This document shows, piece by piece, positions 1,869 through 37,588 of a stretch of DNA of 43,157 nucleotides. The notes below the pieces were generated by a model. It searched no databases, was not told where the DNA came from, and worked only from the letters and a program-made list of their open reading frames with translations. The position numbers and the translations under genes are program-made. The first letter of the stretch is position 1, and each line of letters begins with the position of its first letter. Source of the stretch: Escherichia phage vB_EcoS_MM01; sequence record MK373793.1. The stretch is one strand, 5' to 3'.

Positions 1869-2290
1869 TTTACATCCACACTTACTACACTGGAAAGTTT
1901 AACAGCGTTAAGCATGTTCGCGTGCATTATAGCTACGAGAGTGCAAAGGCTCAGCATTTGGTTCTAGGTGGTGACATTAAGCAATACGGAGAGATAGCGC
2001 GAATTGGTAAACAATTACCTGATCAATCAGGCATAATTGCTACATTTACAACGAGATTGGGCGGAGAAATGAAAATCAAAATTACAAACGTGAACCACAG
2101 GCCAGAAGAAGGCTTAATGACACTAGAGGAATGTGGATTTAAGGTTGGTGACGTTGTTGACGTTGTTGACGTTGCTGGGGTTTACATGGATGGTCGAGTT
2201 TACATTCTTGTGACTCGTGCAAACGATGGGGTATCTGTTGGCAGCGCGGTTGTTTTGGGTGAGAATGAGTACGAGGTGATTGAAGAATGA
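1865..2290 (+). CDS. hypothetical protein (141 aa)
   Basis: ORF track; contains coding tandem repeat VGDVVDVVDV (gacgttgtt x3). Confidence 0.5.
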   Translation: MIYIHTYYTGKFNSVKHVRVHYSYESAKAQHLVLGGDIKQYGEIARIGKQLPDQSGIIATFTTRLGGEMKIKITNVNHRPEEGLMTLEECGFKVGDVVDVVDVAGVYMDGRVYILVTRANDGVSVGSAVVLGENEYEVIEE

Positions 2291-3388: not shown

Positions 3389-3463
3389 GCTCTGTTAGCT
3401 TAATGGAAAAAGCCGCAGCCTTCTAAGCTGTTGATGGTGGTTCGACTCCACCACGGAGCGCCA
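3389..3463 (+). tRNA. tRNA-Arg (anticodon UCU)
   Basis: manual cloverleaf: 7-bp acceptor stem GCTCTGT/ACGGAGC (one G-U), D stem GCTT/AAGC, anticodon stem GCAGC/GCTGT with loop CTTCTAA (U33, UCU, A37), T arm GGTGG-TTCGACT-CCACC, discriminator G, encoded CCA. Confidence 0.85.
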
Positions 3464-15972: not shown

Positions 15973-18741
15973 ATGGCAACAAATGAATTAGCCGGAATCA
16001 CACTAGCCGTAGATGTCTCGCAGGTAGACAGGGGAACGCAGTCACTACAGAAGTTTAGGCAGGCTAACCAACAGGCCGCTTCCGGCATTAGTGAATTCGT
16101 CAACGCTGAGCAGGTTGCTAAAAACCAGGCGAGAGATACCGCGCGAGCACTTGCTGAGCAACAGGCCTCACTGGCTAAGCTGCAAACAGCCATTGATCCA
16201 ACCGCGGCAAAGTTCCGTAAACTCCAAGAGGCGGCGGTAGGTCTTGATAAGGCGTTCGCGGCTGGCGTAGTTCCTGATGAGGAGTTTTTCCGATTAGGTG
16301 AGGCGCTTGAAACGCAGAATGCAAAGCTAGCTCGCTCACGTGCGGCATTAACCGAAGAGGGTAGAGCGGCAGCGCAGGAAGCAAAGGATAAGTCAAAGGC
16401 AAAGGCTGAGGCAGATAGATTCATTGCATCACTGCAACGCCAGGCTCAAGCTGCAACATTGACGCGCGAGGAATATCTTAAGCTACAGGCGGCCCAGCTT
16501 GGCGTATCAGCGCAGGCTACACCATTAATTAACCAGATTGGCACTGCAACCCAGAGAACCGTTGAGAATCTTGGCAGGCAAGCCGCAGCATTCCAGAAGT
16601 CCGGTCTAAGCGCTGGTCAGTACAAGAATGCCATTAGTCAGCTACCAGCGCAGATTACTGACATTGGGACTTCATTGGCTGGCGGTATTCCTATCTGGTT
16701 AATTGCAATACAGCAGGGTGGTCAGATTAAGGATAGTTTCGGCGGCATCGCCAATACGGCGCGATTCCTGCTTTCTTACCTTACGCCACTAACCGCCGCC
16801 GCCGGTCTTCTTGGTGCTGGTTTCGCTTATGCAGCTGTTAGCATATACAAAAGCGAGGCCGCAATAAAGGAAGCGAGAAAGGCTATTGAGGATACACTTG
16901 GAGTTACAGGTGAATCCGCAAGAAAGCTAAGCATTAGTATTGCAAGGATCGCCGAGGCTTCAGACAAGACAGCTGAGGATATTACAAAGGCGTTCGTTTC
17001 AACAAGAGACGGAGCTCAGGAAGCAATCCTGAAACTCATTGATGTTGGTGTTAGCTACGAAGATGCAAGGGAGCTTGTTGAGAGATACAAAGACTCTTCA
17101 AACTTCACTCAGGTTAACGCTGAGATTGAAAAACACAGACTTGAAGCCGCAAAGATTAAAGATAGCTGGTTCGAGAACGCTAAGGCAGTTAGCTACTACA
17201 ATGATGTTGCGGTGCAAGGTCTAGTTAATTCGCCACTAACAAACGTTGCGGCAAGAAACAGCGCTGCAATTCAGGAGTTCGCAAGCCTTCTCGAGCAAGA
17301 TGTAAACAAAGCTCTAATTGATGGGAATAGATACGTTGCTGAGCAGGTTGATTTAATTGGTAAAGAGTACCTTGCACTTGACCGCGTGGCTGGTGCGGAG
17401 AAATCCCTTGCCGATGCAAGAAAGCAAGCTGCGGCTATTGCAAGAAGCGGTAATGCTGAAGCCATAGCTCAGGCTAATAGAGTAATTCAGCTTCGCCAGC
17501 GTGAACTTGATGAAGCCAAGAAGGCCGAAGCAGAGAGAAATAAGCCAGCCAAAACCAAAGCACCAAAGGAAGCCAGAGACCTTACCATAAATTACGAGTC
17601 AGGAGTTCTTGCGCTGGAGGCTCAATTAAGGCTGCTTAAGGATGTTGGGGGCCAGACAAAGGCGATAAGTACTGAGCGGAGGAAGCTACTTGAGGAAGAG
17701 GCTAAGTTTGCAATCCTTGAGGAGCGTCAGGCTGCTGGGACAATCGGCAGAGAGCAAGCAAGGCTTCTTCTTGAGAAAGATAAAGTTCTCGAGTTAGCCA
17801 GACAGAAGGCAGAGTTAGGCGATCAGATTGTTTTGCAGGAGAGAGCCAATAAGTTAGCCGAAGACAATAGGAAGAAGACTCTTCAGATTAACAACGAGGC
17901 AAATAACATTGATTTGGGTGCTGGTTTGTCATCTCGTGAACAGCAGAGGGCGAGAGAAATCCAGGCGCTTCAGTCCAATCAGGTTAATGCTGGCGGCGCT
18001 ATTGATGACGTAGATTTTACACAACTTCTAGAAGCAAGGCGTAACTTTTATGCTCAGGAAGATGCGCTACGTGAAAACTGGCTTGCTGGCGTGAATCAAT
18101 CCTTTGCCAATTGGGCTGAGAGCGCGACGGATGCCTTCTCAATTGCTGGAAGTTTAACCACAACCGTATTTGAGGGCATTACAGACCAGATTACCAACCT
18201 TGTAACCACTGGCGAAACAAACTTCAGGGAGTTTACTGTTAGCATCCTTAAGCAGATTGCTAAGATTGCAACCCAACTTCTTATTGTTAAGGCTATTGAG
18301 TCTAGCTTGAGTAGCTTTGGTGGTACTGGTGGCGCGATTGGCTCTATAGCATCTGCGATTGGTGGTGGATTTGCTAATGGTGGTTACACTGGCAGTGGCG
18401 GGAAATATCAACCAGCAGGCACGGTTCACAAAGGCGAGTTTGTATTCACAAAAGAAGCAACAAGCCGCATTGGTGTTAAAAACCTTTATGCACTAATGAA
18501 AGGCTATGCAAATGGCGGCGCTGTTGGTGGCTCTTCAGGATATGCAAATGGCGGCTTGGTTTCTGGTGGTTCAGATGTTAATGTTAGCGGCATTACTGTT
18601 AACGTTAATGGTGGAATTGGAAGCGACCCAGAACAGGCCAAGGCGCTGCAAAATGGCGTCAAGGCAATTGTAGCTGAAGAGATTTCTCAGTCCTTCCAGC
18701 AGGGTGGCCGTGCTTATCAGTACCTTAGAGGTTTTAACTAA
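15973..18741 (+). CDS. tail tape measure protein
   Basis: 922 aa, long Ala/Gln/Lys-rich helical region, Gly-rich C-terminus, position after G/GT. Confidence 0.8.
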   Translation: MATNELAGITLAVDVSQVDRGTQSLQKFRQANQQAASGISEFVNAEQVAKNQARDTARALAEQQASLAKLQTAIDPTAAKFRKLQEAAVGLDKAFAAGVVPDEEFFRLGEALETQNAKLARSRAALTEEGRAAAQEAKDKSKAKAEADRFIASLQRQAQAATLTREEYLKLQAAQLGVSAQATPLINQIGTATQRTVENLGRQAAAFQKSGLSAGQYKNAISQLPAQITDIGTSLAGGIPIWLIAIQQGGQIKDSFGGIANTARFLLSYLTPLTAAAGLLGAGFAYAAVSIYKSEAAIKEARKAIEDTLGVTGESARKLSISIARIAEASDKTAEDITKAFVSTRDGAQEAILKLIDVGVSYEDARELVERYKDSSNFTQVNAEIEKHRLEAAKIKDSWFENAKAVSYYNDVAVQGLVNSPLTNVAARNSAAIQEFASLLEQDVNKALIDGNRYVAEQVDLIGKEYLALDRVAGAEKSLADARKQAAAIARSGNAEAIAQANRVIQLRQRELDEAKKAEAERNKPAKTKAPKEARDLTINYESGVLALEAQLRLLKDVGGQTKAISTERRKLLEEEAKFAILEERQAAGTIGREQARLLLEKDKVLELARQKAELGDQIVLQERANKLAEDNRKKTLQINNEANNIDLGAGLSSREQQRAREIQALQSNQVNAGGAIDDVDFTQLLEARRNFYAQEDALRENWLAGVNQSFANWAESATDAFSIAGSLTTTVFEGITDQITNLVTTGETNFREFTVSILKQIAKIATQLLIVKAIESSLSSFGGTGGAIGSIASAIGGGFANGGYTGSGGKYQPAGTVHKGEFVFTKEATSRIGVKNLYALMKGYANGGAVGGSSGYANGGLVSGGSDVNVSGITVNVNGGIGSDPEQAKALQNGVKAIVAEEISQSFQQGGRAYQYLRGFN

Positions 18742-18771: not shown

Positions 18772-19122
18772 ATGGCTATTGATACATTTAATTACTGCAC
18801 TCAAATCCAGAATGGGGGCGGTTCATTCTCTAACACAAACAACGTGCGAATTGTTAGCTTCGGGAATGGTTTCGAGCAAAGAGGAACTGGGGGCTATCGA
18901 AGCAATAAGCGCAGCTACCAGATGACCTATACAAACAAGAACTGGCGTGAGGTTATGGATTTCTGTTTCAATCACATCATCACACCATTCTTCTGGAAAA
19001 CACCGCAAGGCGATACTTCTATGTTTGTTATTCAGCAGGATAGCATTTCAGTTACGCCATTAAGTAGCGAAGTTCAAACTGTAAACATGCAATTCGTGGA
19101 AGTCTTTAGCTCAATGCGTTAA
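18772..19122 (+). CDS. minor tail protein (lambda gpM-like)
   Basis: 116 aa directly after tape measure; first of M-L-K-I-J order. Confidence 0.65.
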   Translation: MAIDTFNYCTQIQNGGGSFSNTNNVRIVSFGNGFEQRGTGGYRSNKRSYQMTYTNKNWREVMDFCFNHIITPFFWKTPQGDTSMFVIQQDSISVTPLSSEVQTVNMQFVEVFSSMR

Positions 19123-19126
19123 ACTA

Positions 19127-19149
19127 AGCCCCTATACGGGGCTTTTTTT
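19127..19149 (+). terminator. rho-independent terminator
   Basis: gcccc-tatac-ggggc hairpin plus T7. Confidence 0.65.
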
Positions 19150-19194
19150 ATATGATACATTGTATTTCATAACTAATTTCACAACGAGAAATTT

Positions 19195-19719
19195 ATGGAA
19201 GAAATGCGTAGAGTTTGCAAGAAGTGCGGGGTAGAGAAGATTCATTCAGAGTTCGCAAAGCATAAGCAGTGCATGTTTGGTATAACTCATGAATGTAGAG
19301 TTTGTGCACTTAAGAGGTCTCAATACAGAACGCCAGATAAGCTGGCAATGAAATCAGAATACGACAAGAGAAGATATGAGAGAAGTTCAAAAAGGCAGAA
19401 AATAGATAGGGAATCTGACCCAGCGAAATACAAACTTTCAACATACAAAAGCTTTGATAAAAAGAGAGGTCTCAATTCTGACATAGACTACGAATTTGTT
19501 CTAAATGCAATAGATTCACCTTGCTTTTATTGCGGATTAAAAGATAAGCAAAATGTTGGGTTAGATAGAATTGAAAACTCAATTGGTCACATGAAGTCAA
19601 ACGTAGTTCCGTGTTGCTCATTATGTAACATGACAAGGGGTGATAGATTTACTCATGAGGATTTTAAAGAGTTTATAGCACCTTCAATAGCTAAATTTAG
19701 AGAGGCAAATAAATGCTAA
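19195..19719 (+). CDS. HNH endonuclease (free-standing, putative homing endonuclease)
   Basis: Cys-rich zinc motifs CKKCG...CRVC and HNH core CFYCG...GLDRIEN...GH...CCSLCN; AT-rich; inserted between M-like and L-like tail genes. Confidence 0.7.
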   Translation: MEEMRRVCKKCGVEKIHSEFAKHKQCMFGITHECRVCALKRSQYRTPDKLAMKSEYDKRRYERSSKRQKIDRESDPAKYKLSTYKSFDKKRGLNSDIDYEFVLNAIDSPCFYCGLKDKQNVGLDRIENSIGHMKSNVVPCCSLCNMTRGDRFTHEDFKEFIAPSIAKFREANKC

Positions 19720-20468
19720 GTGCAAAATTTGAGAATCAGCTACAATCTTTATTTCCTGGAGAGGTGGTAACATTGATTCAGGTTGATGGTACATCATTTG
19801 GTGCAAATATATTTAACTTCCACAATGAGAACATTTCATACACACCTGAAGAAATTATGATTTCCCAAATGAACGGAGAACCACTACCAGAGAAGACCAT
19901 CACATTTCGTGGTGAAGAGTATGGGCCTAGACCTTTTGGTATCTCGGGTATCAATATGACTTCTGACGGTAAAGCAAATAAGGTGACACTAACCGTTTCA
20001 AACGTAGATCAGCGCATTAGTGCACTTATCCGCACTTACAATGGATTGGTAAAGGCTAAGGTTACCATCTGGATTACTACACGCGATAACATTAATGAAG
20101 ACGGAAGTATTGCTGATGGGGACTATCGCCGATTTGTTTACTTCATTGAGCGCCCCAAACAGGTTGACTACAAGACTGCCTCGTTTGAGCTAAGTAGCCC
20201 AATTGATATGGACGGTATTTACATCCCTGCCAGACTTGTTCAGTCTGTTTGCTACTGGGCTTCAAGGGGCTGGTATCGCAGCGGGAATGGTTGTGCTTAT
20301 GCTGGTAATAGATACTTCAATAAGGATGATGAGCCAGTGTCAGACCCATCATTAGACTTCTGCGCCGGAACGGTAAACAGTTGCAAAATTAGATTTGGTG
20401 CTAACAATCAATTGGATTTCGGTGGTTGTGCGGCAGCAAGTCTTCAAGCTAAAGCCAATCAGAGCTAA
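19713..20468 (+). CDS. minor tail protein (lambda gpL-like)
   Basis: 251 aa; C-terminal four-Cys cluster (CYWASRGW...C...C...C) as in gpL Fe-S proteins. Confidence 0.7.
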   Translation: MLSAKFENQLQSLFPGEVVTLIQVDGTSFGANIFNFHNENISYTPEEIMISQMNGEPLPEKTITFRGEEYGPRPFGISGINMTSDGKANKVTLTVSNVDQRISALIRTYNGLVKAKVTIWITTRDNINEDGSIADGDYRRFVYFIERPKQVDYKTASFELSSPIDMDGIYIPARLVQSVCYWASRGWYRSGNGCAYAGNRYFNKDDEPVSDPSLDFCAGTVNSCKIRFGANNQLDFGGCAAASLQAKANQS

Positions 20469-20481
20469 AGAGGATTTATCA

Positions 20482-21240
20482 ATGTTAACACCGAAAGTTA
20501 AACTGCAAATCTTCCAGCACGCAAAGGAAGTTTACCCGCATGAATGCTGCGGGGTTGTTACACAAAAGGGTCGTGCGCAGAAGTATCACAGAATCACAAA
20601 CACAAGCAAAGACCCTGAAAATGAGTTTGTACTCGATTCAAACGAGTATTCTGATATTGCATTTGGATTATCTGATAACGAGTCAATTGTTTACGTGGTT
20701 CACTCACATACTGGTGATGGCGCAACAACAAGGCCTAGCCCTGCGGATATCTGTAGCTGCAACGAGTGCGAGATTCCTTACGTTATCGTAAGCATCCCAG
20801 AAGGAGACATGAGAACCCTTGAACCTTCAACCATGCCACTGATTGGTCGCCCATGGGGTTTAGGTAGCTTTGATTGCTGGGAGTTAGTTATGGCTTTCCA
20901 CAAGAAATACGGCGTCAAACTGAATGACTATCGAGTTAATTACCCGTGGTGGGAGAAGAAGTACGGCGAAAATATCTATGATGACAACTGGATTAAGGAA
21001 GGTTTTGAGCTGGTAAAAACTTCTGATATTCCTGTTGGCTCAATGATTATGATGCAGGCGCAAAGCGATGTTACAAACCACGCAGGAATATACATTGGCA
21101 ATAACAGATTCATCCACCACCTCTATGGTAAAATGAGTTCTGTTGATATCTACTCCGATTACTGGCGCGAGCGCACAGTGCGAATTGTTCGCCATAAGGA
21201 TTTACCAGAGGATGTAAGTTATGACCCAGAAACTGATTGA
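20482..21240 (+). CDS. tail assembly protein (lambda gpK-like; MPN/JAMM + NlpC/P60-like)
   Basis: ECCG and HSHTGDG...SPAD JAMM-like motif near N-terminus; ATG 20482 inside track ORF 20395. Confidence 0.75.
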   Translation: MLTPKVKLQIFQHAKEVYPHECCGVVTQKGRAQKYHRITNTSKDPENEFVLDSNEYSDIAFGLSDNESIVYVVHSHTGDGATTRPSPADICSCNECEIPYVIVSIPEGDMRTLEPSTMPLIGRPWGLGSFDCWELVMAFHKKYGVKLNDYRVNYPWWEKKYGENIYDDNWIKEGFELVKTSDIPVGSMIMMQAQSDVTNHAGIYIGNNRFIHHLYGKMSSVDIYSDYWRERTVRIVRHKDLPEDVSYDPETD

Positions 21241-21793
21241 TATTAAGTTAGGCCTGTCTATAGGTAGAAGGTTTGGCAAGGTTCACCAAATGGCGGTGAG
21301 CAGCGTGCCCGAAGCAATGCGAGCACTATGTTCACAGATCCCTGCCTTCAAGGAGTTCATGAATAGCCATGTGGGGCAAAACACCAGATATGCTATTTTT
21401 GTGGATGGTAAAAATGTGAACGAGCATCGAATCGAAGATTTCAACGCCGTTCAGGAGATACGAATCTTACCAATTCCTCGGGGCCGTAAGTCTGGCGGGT
21501 TATTTCAGACAATTTTAGGCGCCGCTCTTATTACTGTTGGTATCTTCACTGGGCAAGTTTACTTGATTGGTGCTGGTGTTTCTCTGGCTGCTGGTGGTAT
21601 TGCTCAGCTGCTTTCACCTCAAGCTACTGGGTTGAAAGACCAAAGCAACCAGACGAGCAATAGAGCATCTTACGCATTCGGCTCTGCCGTGAACACGGTA
21701 GCTGCTGGTTATCCTGTTTGCCTTCCGTATGGTTATCGAACAGTTGGTGGGTCGGTATTTTCGGCCGGCAGTTATGCAGAAGACAATGCTTAA
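21221..21793 (+). CDS. tail assembly protein (lambda gpI-like)
   Basis: 190 aa between K-like and J-like genes; hydrophobic Gly-rich C-terminal half. Confidence 0.6.
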   Translation: MTQKLIDIKLGLSIGRRFGKVHQMAVSSVPEAMRALCSQIPAFKEFMNSHVGQNTRYAIFVDGKNVNEHRIEDFNAVQEIRILPIPRGRKSGGLFQTILGAALITVGIFTGQVYLIGAGVSLAAGGIAQLLSPQATGLKDQSNQTSNRASYAFGSAVNTVAAGYPVCLPYGYRTVGGSVFSAGSYAEDNA

Positions 21794-21824: not shown

Positions 21825-21873
21825 TTAGTGTAGAATGGCACAAATGATCAAAACAAACATGAGGCTTTATGAT

Positions 21874-24800
21874 ATGGCTGAAGAGATTAAGATTTATGGC
21901 GCTAAGGGTGGTAGCCAGAAGCAACACCAACCAGTAGAGCAGGAAGACAACCTTATTTCGGTGAACAAGGTTAAGGTATTGCTTGCCGTTGCTGATGGTG
22001 AGGTTGACCCTAATTTCTCCATGAAGGATTTATACCTTGCTGATGTGCCTGTTCAGAACCAGGATAACAGCTACAACTATGAAGGAGTTCGGGCAGAATT
22101 TCGCTCTGGGACTCAGTATCAGGATTACATTGCTGGGCTTGATGGTGCTAACTCAGAGATTCAGGCATCTCGTGAAATCACAAATGATACGCCTTACATC
22201 ATTGCGGTTAATAACAGTCAGCTTTCAGCAATTCGAGTTAAACTATTTTGGCCTCGACTAGTTAAACAGGAAAGCAATGGAGACCTGAATGGTACAACTT
22301 GCGAGTACGCAATTGACTTGTCTGTTAATGGTGGAGCATATCAGGAATACACTCGCGGAGTTGCAAACGGGAAGACAACAACTGGTTACGACCGTAGTAT
22401 CCGTGTAAACCTTCCGGCTGAATTTGATAGCGCGCTAGTTAGAATTCGGAAGATTACGCCTGATTCAACAATTAGCACTCTGGTTAATGGAATGCAGATT
22501 ACAACCTATCAGGAAGTGATTGACGCTAAATTCCGCTATCCGCTTACGGCTCTGGTTTACGTTGAGTTTGGCTCTGACCTGTTCCCTAATGGCATCCCGA
22601 CAATCTCTATCAAGAAGAGATGGAAACTTATTCAGGTTCCAACGAACTATAATCCAGAGACAAGAACTTATAGCGGCACATGGAATGGTCTATTTAAAAT
22701 GGCTTGGTCAAATAACCCTGCGTGGGTTCTTTATGACTTAGTAACAAACCGCCGCTATGGTCTTGACCAGCGAGAGTTGGGTGTAGAGATTGATAAGTGG
22801 GGTCTATACGAAGCCGCGCAATTCTGTGACCAGATGGTGCCGGATGGGAAAGGTGGAATGGAGCCGCGTTACCTGTGCGATATGGTTGTGCAGAATAAAG
22901 TTGAGGCCTACACGCTAATTCGTGATATCTGTTCAATATTCCGTGGCCTGACTTTCTATGATGGCGAAAAGATTGGTATCGTGGTTGATAAACCGCGAAA
23001 CCCGTCTTACATCTTCACTAATGATAACGTTGTAAACGGATTATTCAGCCGCACCTTTGCCAGTGATAAGAGTCTTTACACCACGGCAAACGTTCAGTTT
23101 GATGATGTTGAGAACAACTATCAGCAGGATGTTGAGCCAGTTTTTGAACTCGAGGCTACTCGCCGCTTTGGTTTTAACCCTGTTGATTTAACTGCTATTG
23201 GCTGTACTCGAAGAAGCGAAGCAAACAGGCGCGGTAGGTGGCTTCTAAAAACAAATCTGAGAAGCGAAACTATCAGCTTCACTACCGGACTGGAAGGCAT
23301 GATTCCGATGATTGGCGAGGTTATTGCGGTTAATGACGCAGCATGGTCTAGCAACTATCAATTAAACCTTTCTGGTCGAATCGAATCAGTGCAGGGGTTG
23401 CAGGTTTTTACCCCGTTTAAAGTTGACGCAGCACCTGGTGATAGAATCCTGCTTAACAAGCCTGACGGAAGCCCAGAGGCAAGAACCATTGCCAGCGTTT
23501 CGGAAGATGGTAGAACAATCAACCTTAACACTGCTTTCAGTTTTGTGGCTCAGCCGGATACTGTTTTCGCAATCGATAAGAACAACCTCGCGCTTCAGCA
23601 GTATGTGGTGACCGGGATTCAAAAAGCAGACACTGATGGTCAGGACTCATTTCAATATACGATTACTGCTGTAGAGTACGACCAGAACAAATACGATGAG
23701 ATTGACTACGGCGTTAACATCATTGACCGCCCAACATCAATTGTAGAGCCTGACAGATTATCGCCACCAGAAAACCTGACCGTGTCAAGCTACAGCAAGA
23801 TTGTTCAGGGATTGTCGGTTGAGACAATGGTTATTGGCTGGGATAAGGCGCCATACGCTAAAACATACAATGTTCAGTGGAGAAAAGAGAATGGTAACTG
23901 GATTAACGTACCCAGAACAGCTAGCACAGAAGTTGATATCGAGGGCATTTACGCAGGAATCTATGACGTTAGGGTTCGCAGCGTATCAGATACTGAAAAC
24001 GTGTCTGCATGGTCTGGTATTGTAACAAGAAGCCTTACTGGAAAGATTGGTAAGCCACCAAAGCTGCAGGTTATAACGGCGACTGATGACGAAGTTTTCG
24101 GAATTAGAGTTAAGTGGGGCTTTGCAGATGGTAGTGGCGACACTGCATACACAGAGCTTCAGCAGGTAGAGGACAATGGCGATGGCACATACAATCCAGA
24201 CAATGCAAGTTTACTTACTTTGGTTCCGTATCCTCAATATGAATATTGGCACTCTCCAATACAACCGGGTAAGGTTATTTGGTATAGGGCAAGAATCATA
24301 GACAGAATCGGAAACACTTCTGATTGGACTGATTTTGTTAGAGGTATGAGTACTGACGATGCGCAAAAGATAGCTGAGTACATTAAGGTTGATATAGAGC
24401 AGTCTGAAGGTTTTAAATACCTACAGCAGAATGCAATTGAGAAAAACCAGGACATTCAGAATCAAGCTGAGGCAATTATCGAGAACGCGTTGGCTAATGA
24501 TGGTGATGTTCGAAGAATGACAAAGGAGAATGGCAAACGTAAGGCTGAATATGTTCAGGCGGTTAATCTTATAGCTAATGAAACTGAGGCGCGTGTAGAG
24601 GCTCTCACGCAGCTTAAAGCGCAGATAGATGACGAGGTTGTGGCGTCAATTAGTGAAGTTCAGACAGCGCTAGCCACAGAGACCGAAGCAAGGACTACAG
24701 CTGACACAGCATTATCTGCAAGATTGGGTGATAATGAAGCAGCTCTAAACCAGAAGCTAGACGCTTTCTCTAATGCTACATCAACTGGCGTACAGTACGG

Positions 24801-25230
24801 AATAAGCCTTGGTCTTAAATACAATGGACAGACCTATTCATCTGGCATGAGTATGGAGCTAGTTGGCACTGGTGGAAATGTTCGCAGTCAGTTCATATTT
24901 GACGCAAACAGATTCGCCATAAGTAATGGCATTGGTTCTGGTTCCGGTCAGTGGCAATTGCCTTTCGTTGTCGAGAATGGGAGCGTAATCATCCAAAGCG
25001 CAGTTATCGGCGATGGTTCAATCAGTAACGCGAAGATTGGTAACTTTATTCAGTCAAACAATTACGTGGCTAACACTACCGGTTGGAGACTTGATAAAGG
25101 TGGCACATTCGAGAATAACGGGTCAACACCTGGTGAAGGTAGAATGAAGCAGACTAACCAAACAATTTCTGTAGCAGATGCAAATGGAAGGCTTCGTGTT
25201 CAGATTGGTCGTTTAACTGGAGTATACTAA
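21874..25230 (+). CDS. central tail fibre / host specificity protein (lambda gpJ-like)
   Basis: N-terminus GAKGGSQKQHQP...LISVNKVKVLLAVADGEVD and internal TPDSTISTL...YPLTALVYVEF match the lambda J pattern; start chosen at ATG 21874 with GAGG RBS (track 21835). Confidence 0.85.
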   Translation: MAEEIKIYGAKGGSQKQHQPVEQEDNLISVNKVKVLLAVADGEVDPNFSMKDLYLADVPVQNQDNSYNYEGVRAEFRSGTQYQDYIAGLDGANSEIQASREITNDTPYIIAVNNSQLSAIRVKLFWPRLVKQESNGDLNGTTCEYAIDLSVNGGAYQEYTRGVANGKTTTGYDRSIRVNLPAEFDSALVRIRKITPDSTISTLVNGMQITTYQEVIDAKFRYPLTALVYVEFGSDLFPNGIPTISIKKRWKLIQVPTNYNPETRTYSGTWNGLFKMAWSNNPAWVLYDLVTNRRYGLDQRELGVEIDKWGLYEAAQFCDQMVPDGKGGMEPRYLCDMVVQNKVEAYTLIRDICSIFRGLTFYDGEKIGIVVDKPRNPSYIFTNDNVVNGLFSRTFASDKSLYTTANVQFDDVENNYQQDVEPVFELEATRRFGFNPVDLTAIGCTRRSEANRRGRWLLKTNLRSETISFTTGLEGMIPMIGEVIAVNDAAWSSNYQLNLSGRIESVQGLQVFTPFKVDAAPGDRILLNKPDGSPEARTIASVSEDGRTINLNTAFSFVAQPDTVFAIDKNNLALQQYVVTGIQKADTDGQDSFQYTITAVEYDQNKYDEIDYGVNIIDRPTSIVEPDRLSPPENLTVSSYSKIVQGLSVETMVIGWDKAPYAKTYNVQWRKENGNWINVPRTASTEVDIEGIYAGIYDVRVRSVSDTENVSAWSGIVTRSLTGKIGKPPKLQVITATDDEVFGIRVKWGFADGSGDTAYTELQQVEDNGDGTYNPDNASLLTLVPYPQYEYWHSPIQPGKVIWYRARIIDRIGNTSDWTDFVRGMSTDDAQKIAEYIKVDIEQSEGFKYLQQNAIEKNQDIQNQAEAIIENALANDGDVRRMTKENGKRKAEYVQAVNLIANETEARVEALTQLKAQIDDEVVASISEVQTALATETEARTTADTALSARLGDNEAALNQKLDAFSNATSTGVQYGISLGLKYNGQTYSSGMSMELVGTGGNVRSQFIFDANRFAISNGIGSGSGQWQLPFVVENGSVIIQSAVIGDGSISNAKIGNFIQSNNYVANTTGWRLDKGGTFENNGSTPGEGRMKQTNQTISVADANGRLRVQIGRLTGVY

Positions 25231-37028: not shown

Positions 37029-37046
37029 TAGCACTTTTTGTTAAAA
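37027..37046 (+). repeat. junction motif A copy (aatagcactttttgttaaaa)
   Basis: begins right after TAA stop; hairpin acccac-gaaa-gtgggt; motif B 37078-37087; ATG 37100. Confidence 0.6.
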
Positions 37047-37099
37047 CGATACCCACGAAAGTGGGTATTATTGTTTTATCGAAACGAGAGGAGATAGAA

Positions 37100-37588
37100 A
37101 TGAATTGGCATGAATTTTTCATATACGATAATGGAACTTTGTTTTGGAAGGTGAAGCCTTCAAGAAGTGTCTTGGTTGGCAGCGTTGCTGGTGGCTTGCA
37201 CTCCGCTGGATATGTTGACTTAAGGTTAAATAAAAAAGCATACTTGTGCCATAGAATTATTTGGGAGATGCATAACGGGATAATACCAGAAGGTATGGAG
37301 ATTGATCATATAAATCACATTAGGGATGACAACAGAATTGAGAATTTGCGACTTGTGAGCAGGCTAGAAAACCATAGAAACAGATCAAAACCAAAAAACA
37401 ATAAAAGCGGATTTACTGGAGTGAGGCAAACGAATAGTGGTAAGTGGACATCTTACATATGCTTAAGGGATGAAAATAACAAGAGGTATATAAAAACATT
37501 ATATTACGGAGATTCTTTTGATTGCGCTGTATCTGCAAGAGTCGAGGCTGTGAAAGGCTTTGGGTTTCATGATAATCACGGGGAGTAA
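37100..37588 (+). CDS. HNH endonuclease with AP2-like DNA-binding domain
   Basis: IDHINHIRDDNRIENLRLVSRLENHRN plus C-terminal GFTGVRQ...GKWTSYI. Confidence 0.65.
   Translation: MNWHEFFIYDNGTLFWKVKPSRSVLVGSVAGGLHSAGYVDLRLNKKAYLCHRIIWEMHNGIIPEGMEIDHINHIRDDNRIENLRLVSRLENHRNRSKPKNNKSGFTGVRQTNSGKWTSYICLRDENNKRYIKTLYYGDSFDCAVSARVEAVKGFGFHDNHGE

Follow-up and report, generated by a model that had tools for sequence, protein, structure and literature searches.

Homing endonuclease genes that stand free of introns have been characterized in phage T4, where the selfish nucleases of the Seg and Mob groups (e.g., SegG) cut the endonuclease-less allele near, rather than at, the insertion point and spread by repair with co-conversion, leaving a divergent flank. 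Seg enzymes belong to the GIY-YIG type and Mob enzymes to the canonical HNH type, and neither is PacI-like. Phages of Escherichia coli commonly carry free-standing HNH homing genes and show the gene conversion that goes with them (PMC8594841). The PacI group of His-Me finger nucleases was counted at fewer than 100 sequences in 2017 (PMC5714182); PacI itself lacks the catalytic His, for which an omega-loop Tyr substitutes (PMC4081073; PMC5714182), and this Tyr follows a DR motif (PMC11529989). In Skunavirus, PacI-like free-standing HNH genes are classed as presumptive homing endonucleases (PMC12724721). Here we describe an open reading frame (ORF) that lies between the lambda-M-like and lambda-L-like minor tail genes of Escherichia phage vB_EcoS_MM01 (MK373793.1), in the 43,157-nucleotide (nt) stretch analyzed here, referred to throughout as the window. 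With a probability that we place at roughly 0.72, this ORF is a free-standing selfish homing endonuclease gene that was copied into the M-L spacer and that belongs, within the His-Me finger (HNH) superfamily, to the PacI-like branch.

The window comes from an Rtp-like siphophage (Drexlerviridae, Braunvirinae) with at most ~85% nucleotide identity to known phages over ~70% of its first 25 kb, among them ACG-M12, ECH1, IME542, 2725-N35, Rtp, and the Veterinaerplatzvirus group. Genes around the ORF follow the lambda-type tail-tip order (tape-measure, M, ORF, L, K, I, and J), and the M and L ORFs on either side of it are intact and collinear with the M and L genes of relatives. A first-pass annotation, made from the sequence without database searches, had placed an AT-rich gene at 19,195–19,719, wedged into the M-L-K-I-J block with its stop codon overlapping the start of L. 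These coordinates were borne out exactly, on the plus strand, with an ATG start and a length of 174 amino acids (aa); the GC content of the ORF is 0.362 against 0.438 for the window, its neighbors match PF05939 (M) and PF05100 (L) and are followed by K, I, and J, and the overlap reads ATGCTAA, with the ATG of L at 19,713–19,715 and the TAA of the nuclease gene at 19,717–19,719.

The same annotation had proposed a comparison of M-L junctions among related phages, and this comparison showed that close relatives differ in whether they have the gene at a defined site. A 2.4-kb query centered on the ORF matched 84 phage records, all without the insert, as none (0/84 Braunvirinae records) covers at least 80% of the query. 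With a 661-nt query of the ORF, relatives align over the first ~50 nt only, which hold the 3′ end of M and the hairpin that follows it, and 83 records match this left flank alone; the best homologue of the ORF protein found by tblastn in a phage record is 54% identical. The four junctions inspected (IME542, TR1, 2725-N35, and 12210I) are empty, with an M-L spacer of 38–40 nt and clean boundaries. In the window, the insert begins directly after the T-run of the hairpin (...GGGGCTTTTTTTAT) and ends a few bases 5′ of the ATG of L, where it stands in place of ~11 nt, TGGAGAAATAT, that carry the L Shine-Dalgarno sequence in relatives. The 3′ end of the nuclease ORF supplies a replacement Shine-Dalgarno sequence for L, and equivalent AGGAG motifs occupy the same place in two homologous loci, L009 and ESCO41. 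Rfam detected no intron or other RNA near the ORF, so the gene is free-standing, and a search for a sigma-70 promoter inside the insert found none. The ORF is intact and under purifying selection, with 14 synonymous and 5 non-synonymous differences from a 97% identical homologue and a ratio of non-synonymous to synonymous divergence (dN/dS) of 0.075.

The flanks of the insert carry an indirect signature of co-conversion or target-site divergence. On the left, the window is 92–98% identical to IME542 and 2725-N35 at the nucleotide level over 18,900–19,150, and the 3′ two-thirds of M are near-identical to these two HNH-less phages, with synonymous divergence (pS) of 0.17 in M codons 46–116 and 0.69–0.72 in M codons 1–45. 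On the right, the first ~135–190 nt of L show 72–78% identity, which is back to ~85% by ~19,850–19,900, although the L protein as a whole is 94% identical to L of IME542 and 2725-N35. Between the window and HNH-less relatives, pS in L is 0.81–0.90 over codons 1–45 and 0.51–0.70 over the rest, whereas the HNH-less relatives among themselves show 0.31–0.42 and 0.56–0.72, respectively. Within the first 23 codons of L, 13 differ from IME542 with just two amino-acid replacements, one of the differences being an AGC-to-TCT serine switch. The GC content of the first 135 nt of L is 0.348, close to the 0.355 of the insert, against 0.443 for the rest of L. Identity to L010, the metagenome scaffold that encodes the 97% homologue, is mosaic, at ~92% over 19,082–19,317, ~98% over 19,318–19,822, and ~88–90% beyond, a pattern that indicates recombination among HNH-carrying phages, centered on the HNH/L junction. 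The 5′ end of L combines low GC content with pS saturation, the 3′ flank of M is near-identical to HNH-less phages, and L010 shares the high-identity block; taken together, these patterns make it probable that the first ~45 codons of L came in with the nuclease gene, as a single block from a donor richer in AT. Repair of a double-strand break with co-conversion leaves such a pattern.

Homologues of the ORF occupy the same site in diverged genomes. At the M/L junction they are found in L010, in the Logan contig SRR21426806_1500 (L009; ~65%, preceded by M and overlapping the L gene that follows), in ESCO41 of the genus Nouzillyvirus (gp59; 54%, with a stop/start overlap with L), and in an IMG/VR contig (L012; 47%), while the K/I junction is filled in TH27 (40%), ESh4 (36%), and the IMG/VR contig L013 (38%). 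The four M/L variants and three K/I variants form site-specific lineages, a pattern expected of homing genes: ESCO41 has a filled M/L and an empty K/I junction and TH27 a filled K/I and an empty M/L junction, yet both belong to one genus. In IME542 and TR1, an unrelated gene of the HNH_3 type separates the tape-measure gene from M, and the Drexlerviridae tail-tip block thus offers at least three intergenic slots (H/M, M/L, and K/I) for free-standing HNH genes. A scan of IMG/VR with the single protein found no close relative. An alignment-based scan of the same collection gave 80 loci, three of which have a recognizable Drexlerviridae tail context; 70 of the rest matched the HNH alone and are uninformative on the site. 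Weak tblastn matches include three Lactococcus phages.

These same comparisons bear on the idea that the ORF has long resided at the M/L junction by vertical inheritance, no longer (or never) mobile, and was deleted in most Braunvirinae lineages. Four deep lineages share the use of this junction, and the identity of the nuclease scales with that of its flanks: against L009, the window shows 64% in the HNH, 68% in M, and 77% in L, and against ESCO41, 54%, 36%, and 63%, respectively. The empty junction (hairpin, TTATTGGAG, and ATG), however, is alike in Braunvirinae and in the Nouzillyvirus TH27, so that loss would have needed to restore the exact spacer many times. Moreover, the window and ESCO41 do not have the same left insertion boundary, the near-identity of the M 3′ flank to HNH-less phages beside a saturated L 5′ flank points to a joint formed by recent recombination at the insert, and the window and L010 share the HNH/L-5′ block at 98% within flanks of ~90%. 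We consider long residence without mobility rather unlikely.

Assigning the nuclease to a class depended on profile and fold searches, since the ORF protein had no match in Pfam at E ≤ 10 or in NCBIfam at E ≤ 1; among its homologues, conservation was scored in 52 (profile alignment), only two of which match a Pfam HNH model (PF01844/PF14279), and motifs were counted in 160. The profile of the 52 homologues matched PacI best in the PDB (E = 6.4e-10), followed by Gme HNH and by Cas9/IscB-type HNH domains, whereas a single-sequence PDB search returned only marginal matches to Cas9/IscB-type HNH domains; PacI is also the closest structure. The name "HNH gene" given in the first-pass annotation therefore stands at the level of the superfamily, by profile search and fold, but not in its canonical form, as no Pfam or NCBIfam HNH model matches and a D-R replaces the usual D-H. 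The zinc-binding Cys pairs noted there are present as four CxxC motifs (C8/C11, C34/C37, C110/C113, and C141/C144) in which all eight Cys are invariant or nearly so, and which at the motif level mark putative zinc sites. The N-terminal segment aligns weakly to the N-terminal CxxC...CxxC of PacI (domain 1 of the profile search). The predicted model, of high confidence over the full-length ORF, places strands at residues 121–125 and 137–141 and a helix at 142–148, which is the beta-hairpin and alpha-helix arrangement of a metal finger.

Within this core, D124, R125, N128, H132, N136, N145, and R148 are invariant or nearly so, D124 and N145 strictly so, and these two align to the Asp and to the CxxCN Asn of PacI and other HNH domains, the positions of the metal ligands. 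The general-base His of the D-H motif is missing, with R125 in its position, and DR is found in 139 of the 160 homologues. The alignment pairs GLDRIENSIGH..N..CSLCN of the window protein with GVDRSDSFEGY..N..CFICN of PacI, so that His132 stands opposite the Tyr of the PacI GY, presumed to be the catalytic Tyr of PacI, and an omega-loop Tyr of the PacI type is absent. Across the 160 homologues the loop position is Tyr in 76 and His in 70, and this interchange supports a possible catalytic role for position 132. In an exhaustive HMMER search the family extends to 14,912 clusters (50% identity) at E ≤ 1e-3 and to 1,872 at E ≤ 1e-10.

The kinship with PacI raises the question of whether the ORF encodes a solitary restriction-like or exclusion nuclease that benefits the phage by cutting host or competitor DNA at a short site that the phage genome lacks. 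PacI, the closest solved relative, is a restriction enzyme without a methylase, viral PacI homologues have been speculated to be viral restrictases (PMC5714182), and the purifying selection on the ORF would suit such a role. Its sporadic distribution (0/84 relatives), however, marks it as dispensable, and fixed intergenic slots combined with a conversion signature in the adjacent gene are typical of homing genes. The window contains one copy of the PacI site TTAATTAA, and at least this specificity is thus not shared with PacI, although this count of one is uninformative on avoidance of PacI sites by the phage. Marker exclusion of competitors is, moreover, a part of the homing mechanism, so that this explanation, which we hold to be improbable, overlaps with the homing endonuclease reading.

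A catalytically dead His-Me finger, retained as a DNA-binding protein or decaying as a relic, is less probable still. The R125 found where D-H is expected and the failure of any Pfam HNH model to recognize the protein would fit inactivity, but PacI is active with the same D-R motif (PMC4081073; PMC5714182; PMC11529989), D124, N145, and the H/Y position are conserved across the 160 homologues, and a full-length ORF with a dN/dS of 0.075 and high model confidence does not look like a relic. A Holliday-junction resolvase of the T4 endonuclease VII type, suggested by PHROG 1035 ("endonuclease VII," E = 1.2e-26) and by the RefSeq name of ESCO41 gp59, can be dismissed with near certainty, as T4 endonuclease VII is absent from the Pfam, PDB profile, and fold match lists, and the Endonuclease_7 model (PF02945), the DHDH motif, and the structural similarity are all lacking. 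Likewise, a packaging-associated HNH protein (HK97 gp74/GVE2-like) would be expected next to terminase or portal genes and in all relatives, and the ORF shows neither feature.

The homing-endonuclease insertion proposed at the outset thus draws its support from the empty junctions, the homologues at the same site, the co-conversion-like 5′ end of L, the purifying selection, and the lack of intron RNA. In the mechanism that we envisage, the enzyme would cut the HNH-less allele during mixed infection, probably in the conserved first ~45 codons of L, which are a candidate target because they are conserved in HNH-less phages and different in the window. Recombinational repair from the HNH-carrying genome would then transfer the nuclease gene to the recipient together with the neighboring 5′ portion of L; such transfer would account for the low GC content and synonymous scrambling of this stretch, and the scrambling would presumably also make the window allele immune. 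At the active site, D124 and N145 would hold a single metal ion, as in PacI, and the role of general base would fall to His132, located in the loop that joins the two strands, in place of the missing canonical His, whose position is taken by R125. The nuclease gene is probably expressed by read-through of the native M-L hairpin as part of the late tail operon, and the new ribosome-binding site within it would keep L translated and leave tail assembly undisturbed.

Several points weigh against this account. The divergence of the nuclease between lineages tracks that of the flanking M and L genes, which fits long vertical residence with repeated loss, and general phage mosaicism without a nuclease could also yield a divergent L 5′ tract. 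Between ESCO41 and TH27, similarity along L is lowest over its first 100 nt (0.70), a weak dip that lies within noise. The protein lacks the canonical His that serves as general base, and the function suggested for His132 derives from the PacI alignment. The literature searched reports neither cleavage activity nor a target site for the ORF protein or a close homologue, and for the single PacI-like nuclease of Skunavirus assayed in vivo, exclusion of phage sk1 is not reported in the text consulted (PMC12724721).

On a wider scale, it is possible, if on the unlikely side, that PacI-like "D-R ... G-H/Y" nucleases form a very large class of phage homing endonucleases in which the general base has moved from strand 1 to the omega loop, with His and Tyr interchangeable, and that the Drexlerviridae M/L and K/I sublineages drive exchange of tail-tip segments by co-conversion.

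Table 1. Positions of the nuclease gene, its parts, and other features of the window.
Feature	Position	Strand	Basis and remarks
Free-standing PacI-like His-Me finger (HNH superfamily) endonuclease gene	19195..19719	+	ATG start, 174 aa
Inserted segment, ~557 bp	19153..19709	+	Both junctions aligned against IME542, 2725-N35, and 12210I; edges good to a few bases; GC 0.355
N-terminal zinc ribbon (putative), C8-x2-C11 ... C34-x2-C37	19216..19305	+	C8, C34, and C37 invariant, C11 near-invariant (n = 52); beta strands in model
Beta-beta-alpha-metal catalytic core within second Cys4 site	19522..19638	+	C110, C113, D124, R125, N128, H132, N136, C141, C144, N145, R148
Replacement Shine-Dalgarno GAGAGG for L	19700..19705	+	In 3′ end of nuclease ORF, 7 nt before ATG of L; read from sequence
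5′ end of L travelling with insert; putative co-conversion tract and putative target region in HNH-less alleles	19713..19850	+	GC, pS, identity profile, L010 block; right edge approximate
Terminator-like hairpin with T-run, native to M-L spacer	19126..19151	+	Hairpin 19126-19144, 7-bp stem, 5 GC pairs
Tape-measure gene	15973..18741		PF06791/PF09718
Lambda-M-like minor tail gene (left flank)	18772..19122	+	PF05939, E 1.5e-15
Lambda-L-like minor tail gene (right flank)	19713..20468	+	PF05100, E 1.5e-44; intact, start unaltered
K-like gene	end at 21240		JAB + NlpC/P60
I-like gene	21221..21793		PF06805
J-like gene	21835..25230		
Second, unrelated free-standing HNH gene, HNH_3 type	37061..37588, ATG at 37100	+	PF13392, E 1.2e-21

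The hairpin with its T-run does lie upstream of the ORF, where the first-pass annotation had seen a strong terminator, but it is not a feature of the insert, being conserved in HNH-less relatives. Comparison of the M-L spacers of the window and of loci L001, L002, L003, L005, L007, and L009 showed that the hairpin is kept in relatives without the nuclease gene, and three unrelated sequence versions across Drexlerviridae all fold at −12 to −13 kcal/mol. It sits right after the stop codon of M, with all downstream tail-tip genes (L, K, I, and J) behind it, and may act as an attenuator that sets tail-tip stoichiometry or as an mRNA-stabilizing element. In L009, the spacer upstream of the 65% homologue (1986..2050 of that contig) carries a perfect extended −10 element, TGCTATAAT, after the hairpin, which suggests that some copies of the insert bring a promoter with them; the window showed no such element.

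The second HNH gene of the window (37,100..37,588) had also been noted at first pass, together with an AP2-like domain. The gene is confirmed as HNH_3 type, but AP2 was undetected by Pfam at E ≤ 10 or by PDB sequence search; an AP2-like GVR..GKW..I motif can be picked out by eye at the C-terminus (GFTGVRQTNSGKWTSYI). The protein is 38% identical to the IME542 HNH encoded between the tape-measure gene and M. The relatives Rtp, DTL, IME253, and ZL19 match the window here only to the end of the upstream exonuclease gene (~37,040–37,114), and this second gene is probably another insertion.

Some further observations concern the window as a whole. A tRNA-Arg gene (anticodon TCT) at 3,389..3,463 is the sole RNA gene found in it by Rfam and ARAGORN. 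AAGCTT, the HindIII palindrome, occurs once against ~16.5 expected under a Markov model, and CTGCAG, TCGCGA, and TGTACA are likewise depleted; this probably reflects restriction-site avoidance, which cannot be tied to the ORF enzyme. Among database records, MG065643–MG065688 ("Campylobacter phage A110b, A118, A144 ..."), labeled as Campylobacter jejuni phages, either match the tail region of the window (~94% for A110b) or carry 36% homologues of the nuclease, and "Pseudomonas phage PsgS01F" also matches; the host labels of these Campylobacter and Pseudomonas records look doubtful.

For annotation of the window, the ORF is best described as a selfish PacI-like homing nuclease, neither an endonuclease VII nor a part of the tail machinery. 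The slots for homing genes at H/M, M/L, and K/I, within the conserved tail-tip block of T1/Rtp-like phages, matter for phylogenies built on tail-tip genes and for tail engineering with them. The system offers both empty and filled sites as well as a putative conversion tract, and HNH-less Rtp-like phages are easily cultured, which allows a test of PacI-type homing and of the replacement of Tyr by His.

Set beside known systems, this is an ordinary homing-endonuclease insertion whose sole unusual point is its resemblance to PacI rather than to a textbook HNH enzyme. With PacI (PDB 3LDY/3M7K; His-Me finger group 20, Jablonska et al., 2017, PMC5714182) the window protein shares the fold, the D-R motif, and two Cys4 sites, which flank the catalytic core in the window protein too as putative zinc sites at the motif level. 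The two are only 14–18% identical, the window protein exceeds PacI in length by 32 aa and includes a helical segment (approximately residues 40–106), and it has His132 where PacI has the Tyr after the DR motif; its gene is a polymorphic insertion in a phage tail operon, whereas that of PacI lies in a bacterial chromosome. The nearest named homologue, ESCO41 gp59 (YP_009789949, "endonuclease VII"/"HNH endonuclease"), is 54% identical over 95% of the length and occupies the M/L site in the same orientation, where its stop codon overlaps the start of L and it supplies the L ribosome-binding site. It differs in belonging to the genus Nouzillyvirus, with a flanking M that is 36% identical, and in its left junction, since the original L Shine-Dalgarno sequence is used by gp59 itself. 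The Skunavirus PacI-like enzymes were assigned to PacI by HHpred and are likewise free-standing, variably present, and confined to a fixed slot in the morphogenesis module, but they belong to another host and phage family and are rare there, at 2 of 268 HNH genes (PMC12724721). The window ORF resembles the T4 Seg and Mob genes in being an intergenic selfish nuclease gene, although their cleavage and co-conversion are demonstrated, whereas those proposed for the window are deduced from sequence patterns. Less ordinary than these precedents are a PacI-type site with His at the Tyr position, the size of a family that goes undetected by Pfam and NCBIfam models when the window protein is the query, and the clear division into M/L and K/I sublineages.

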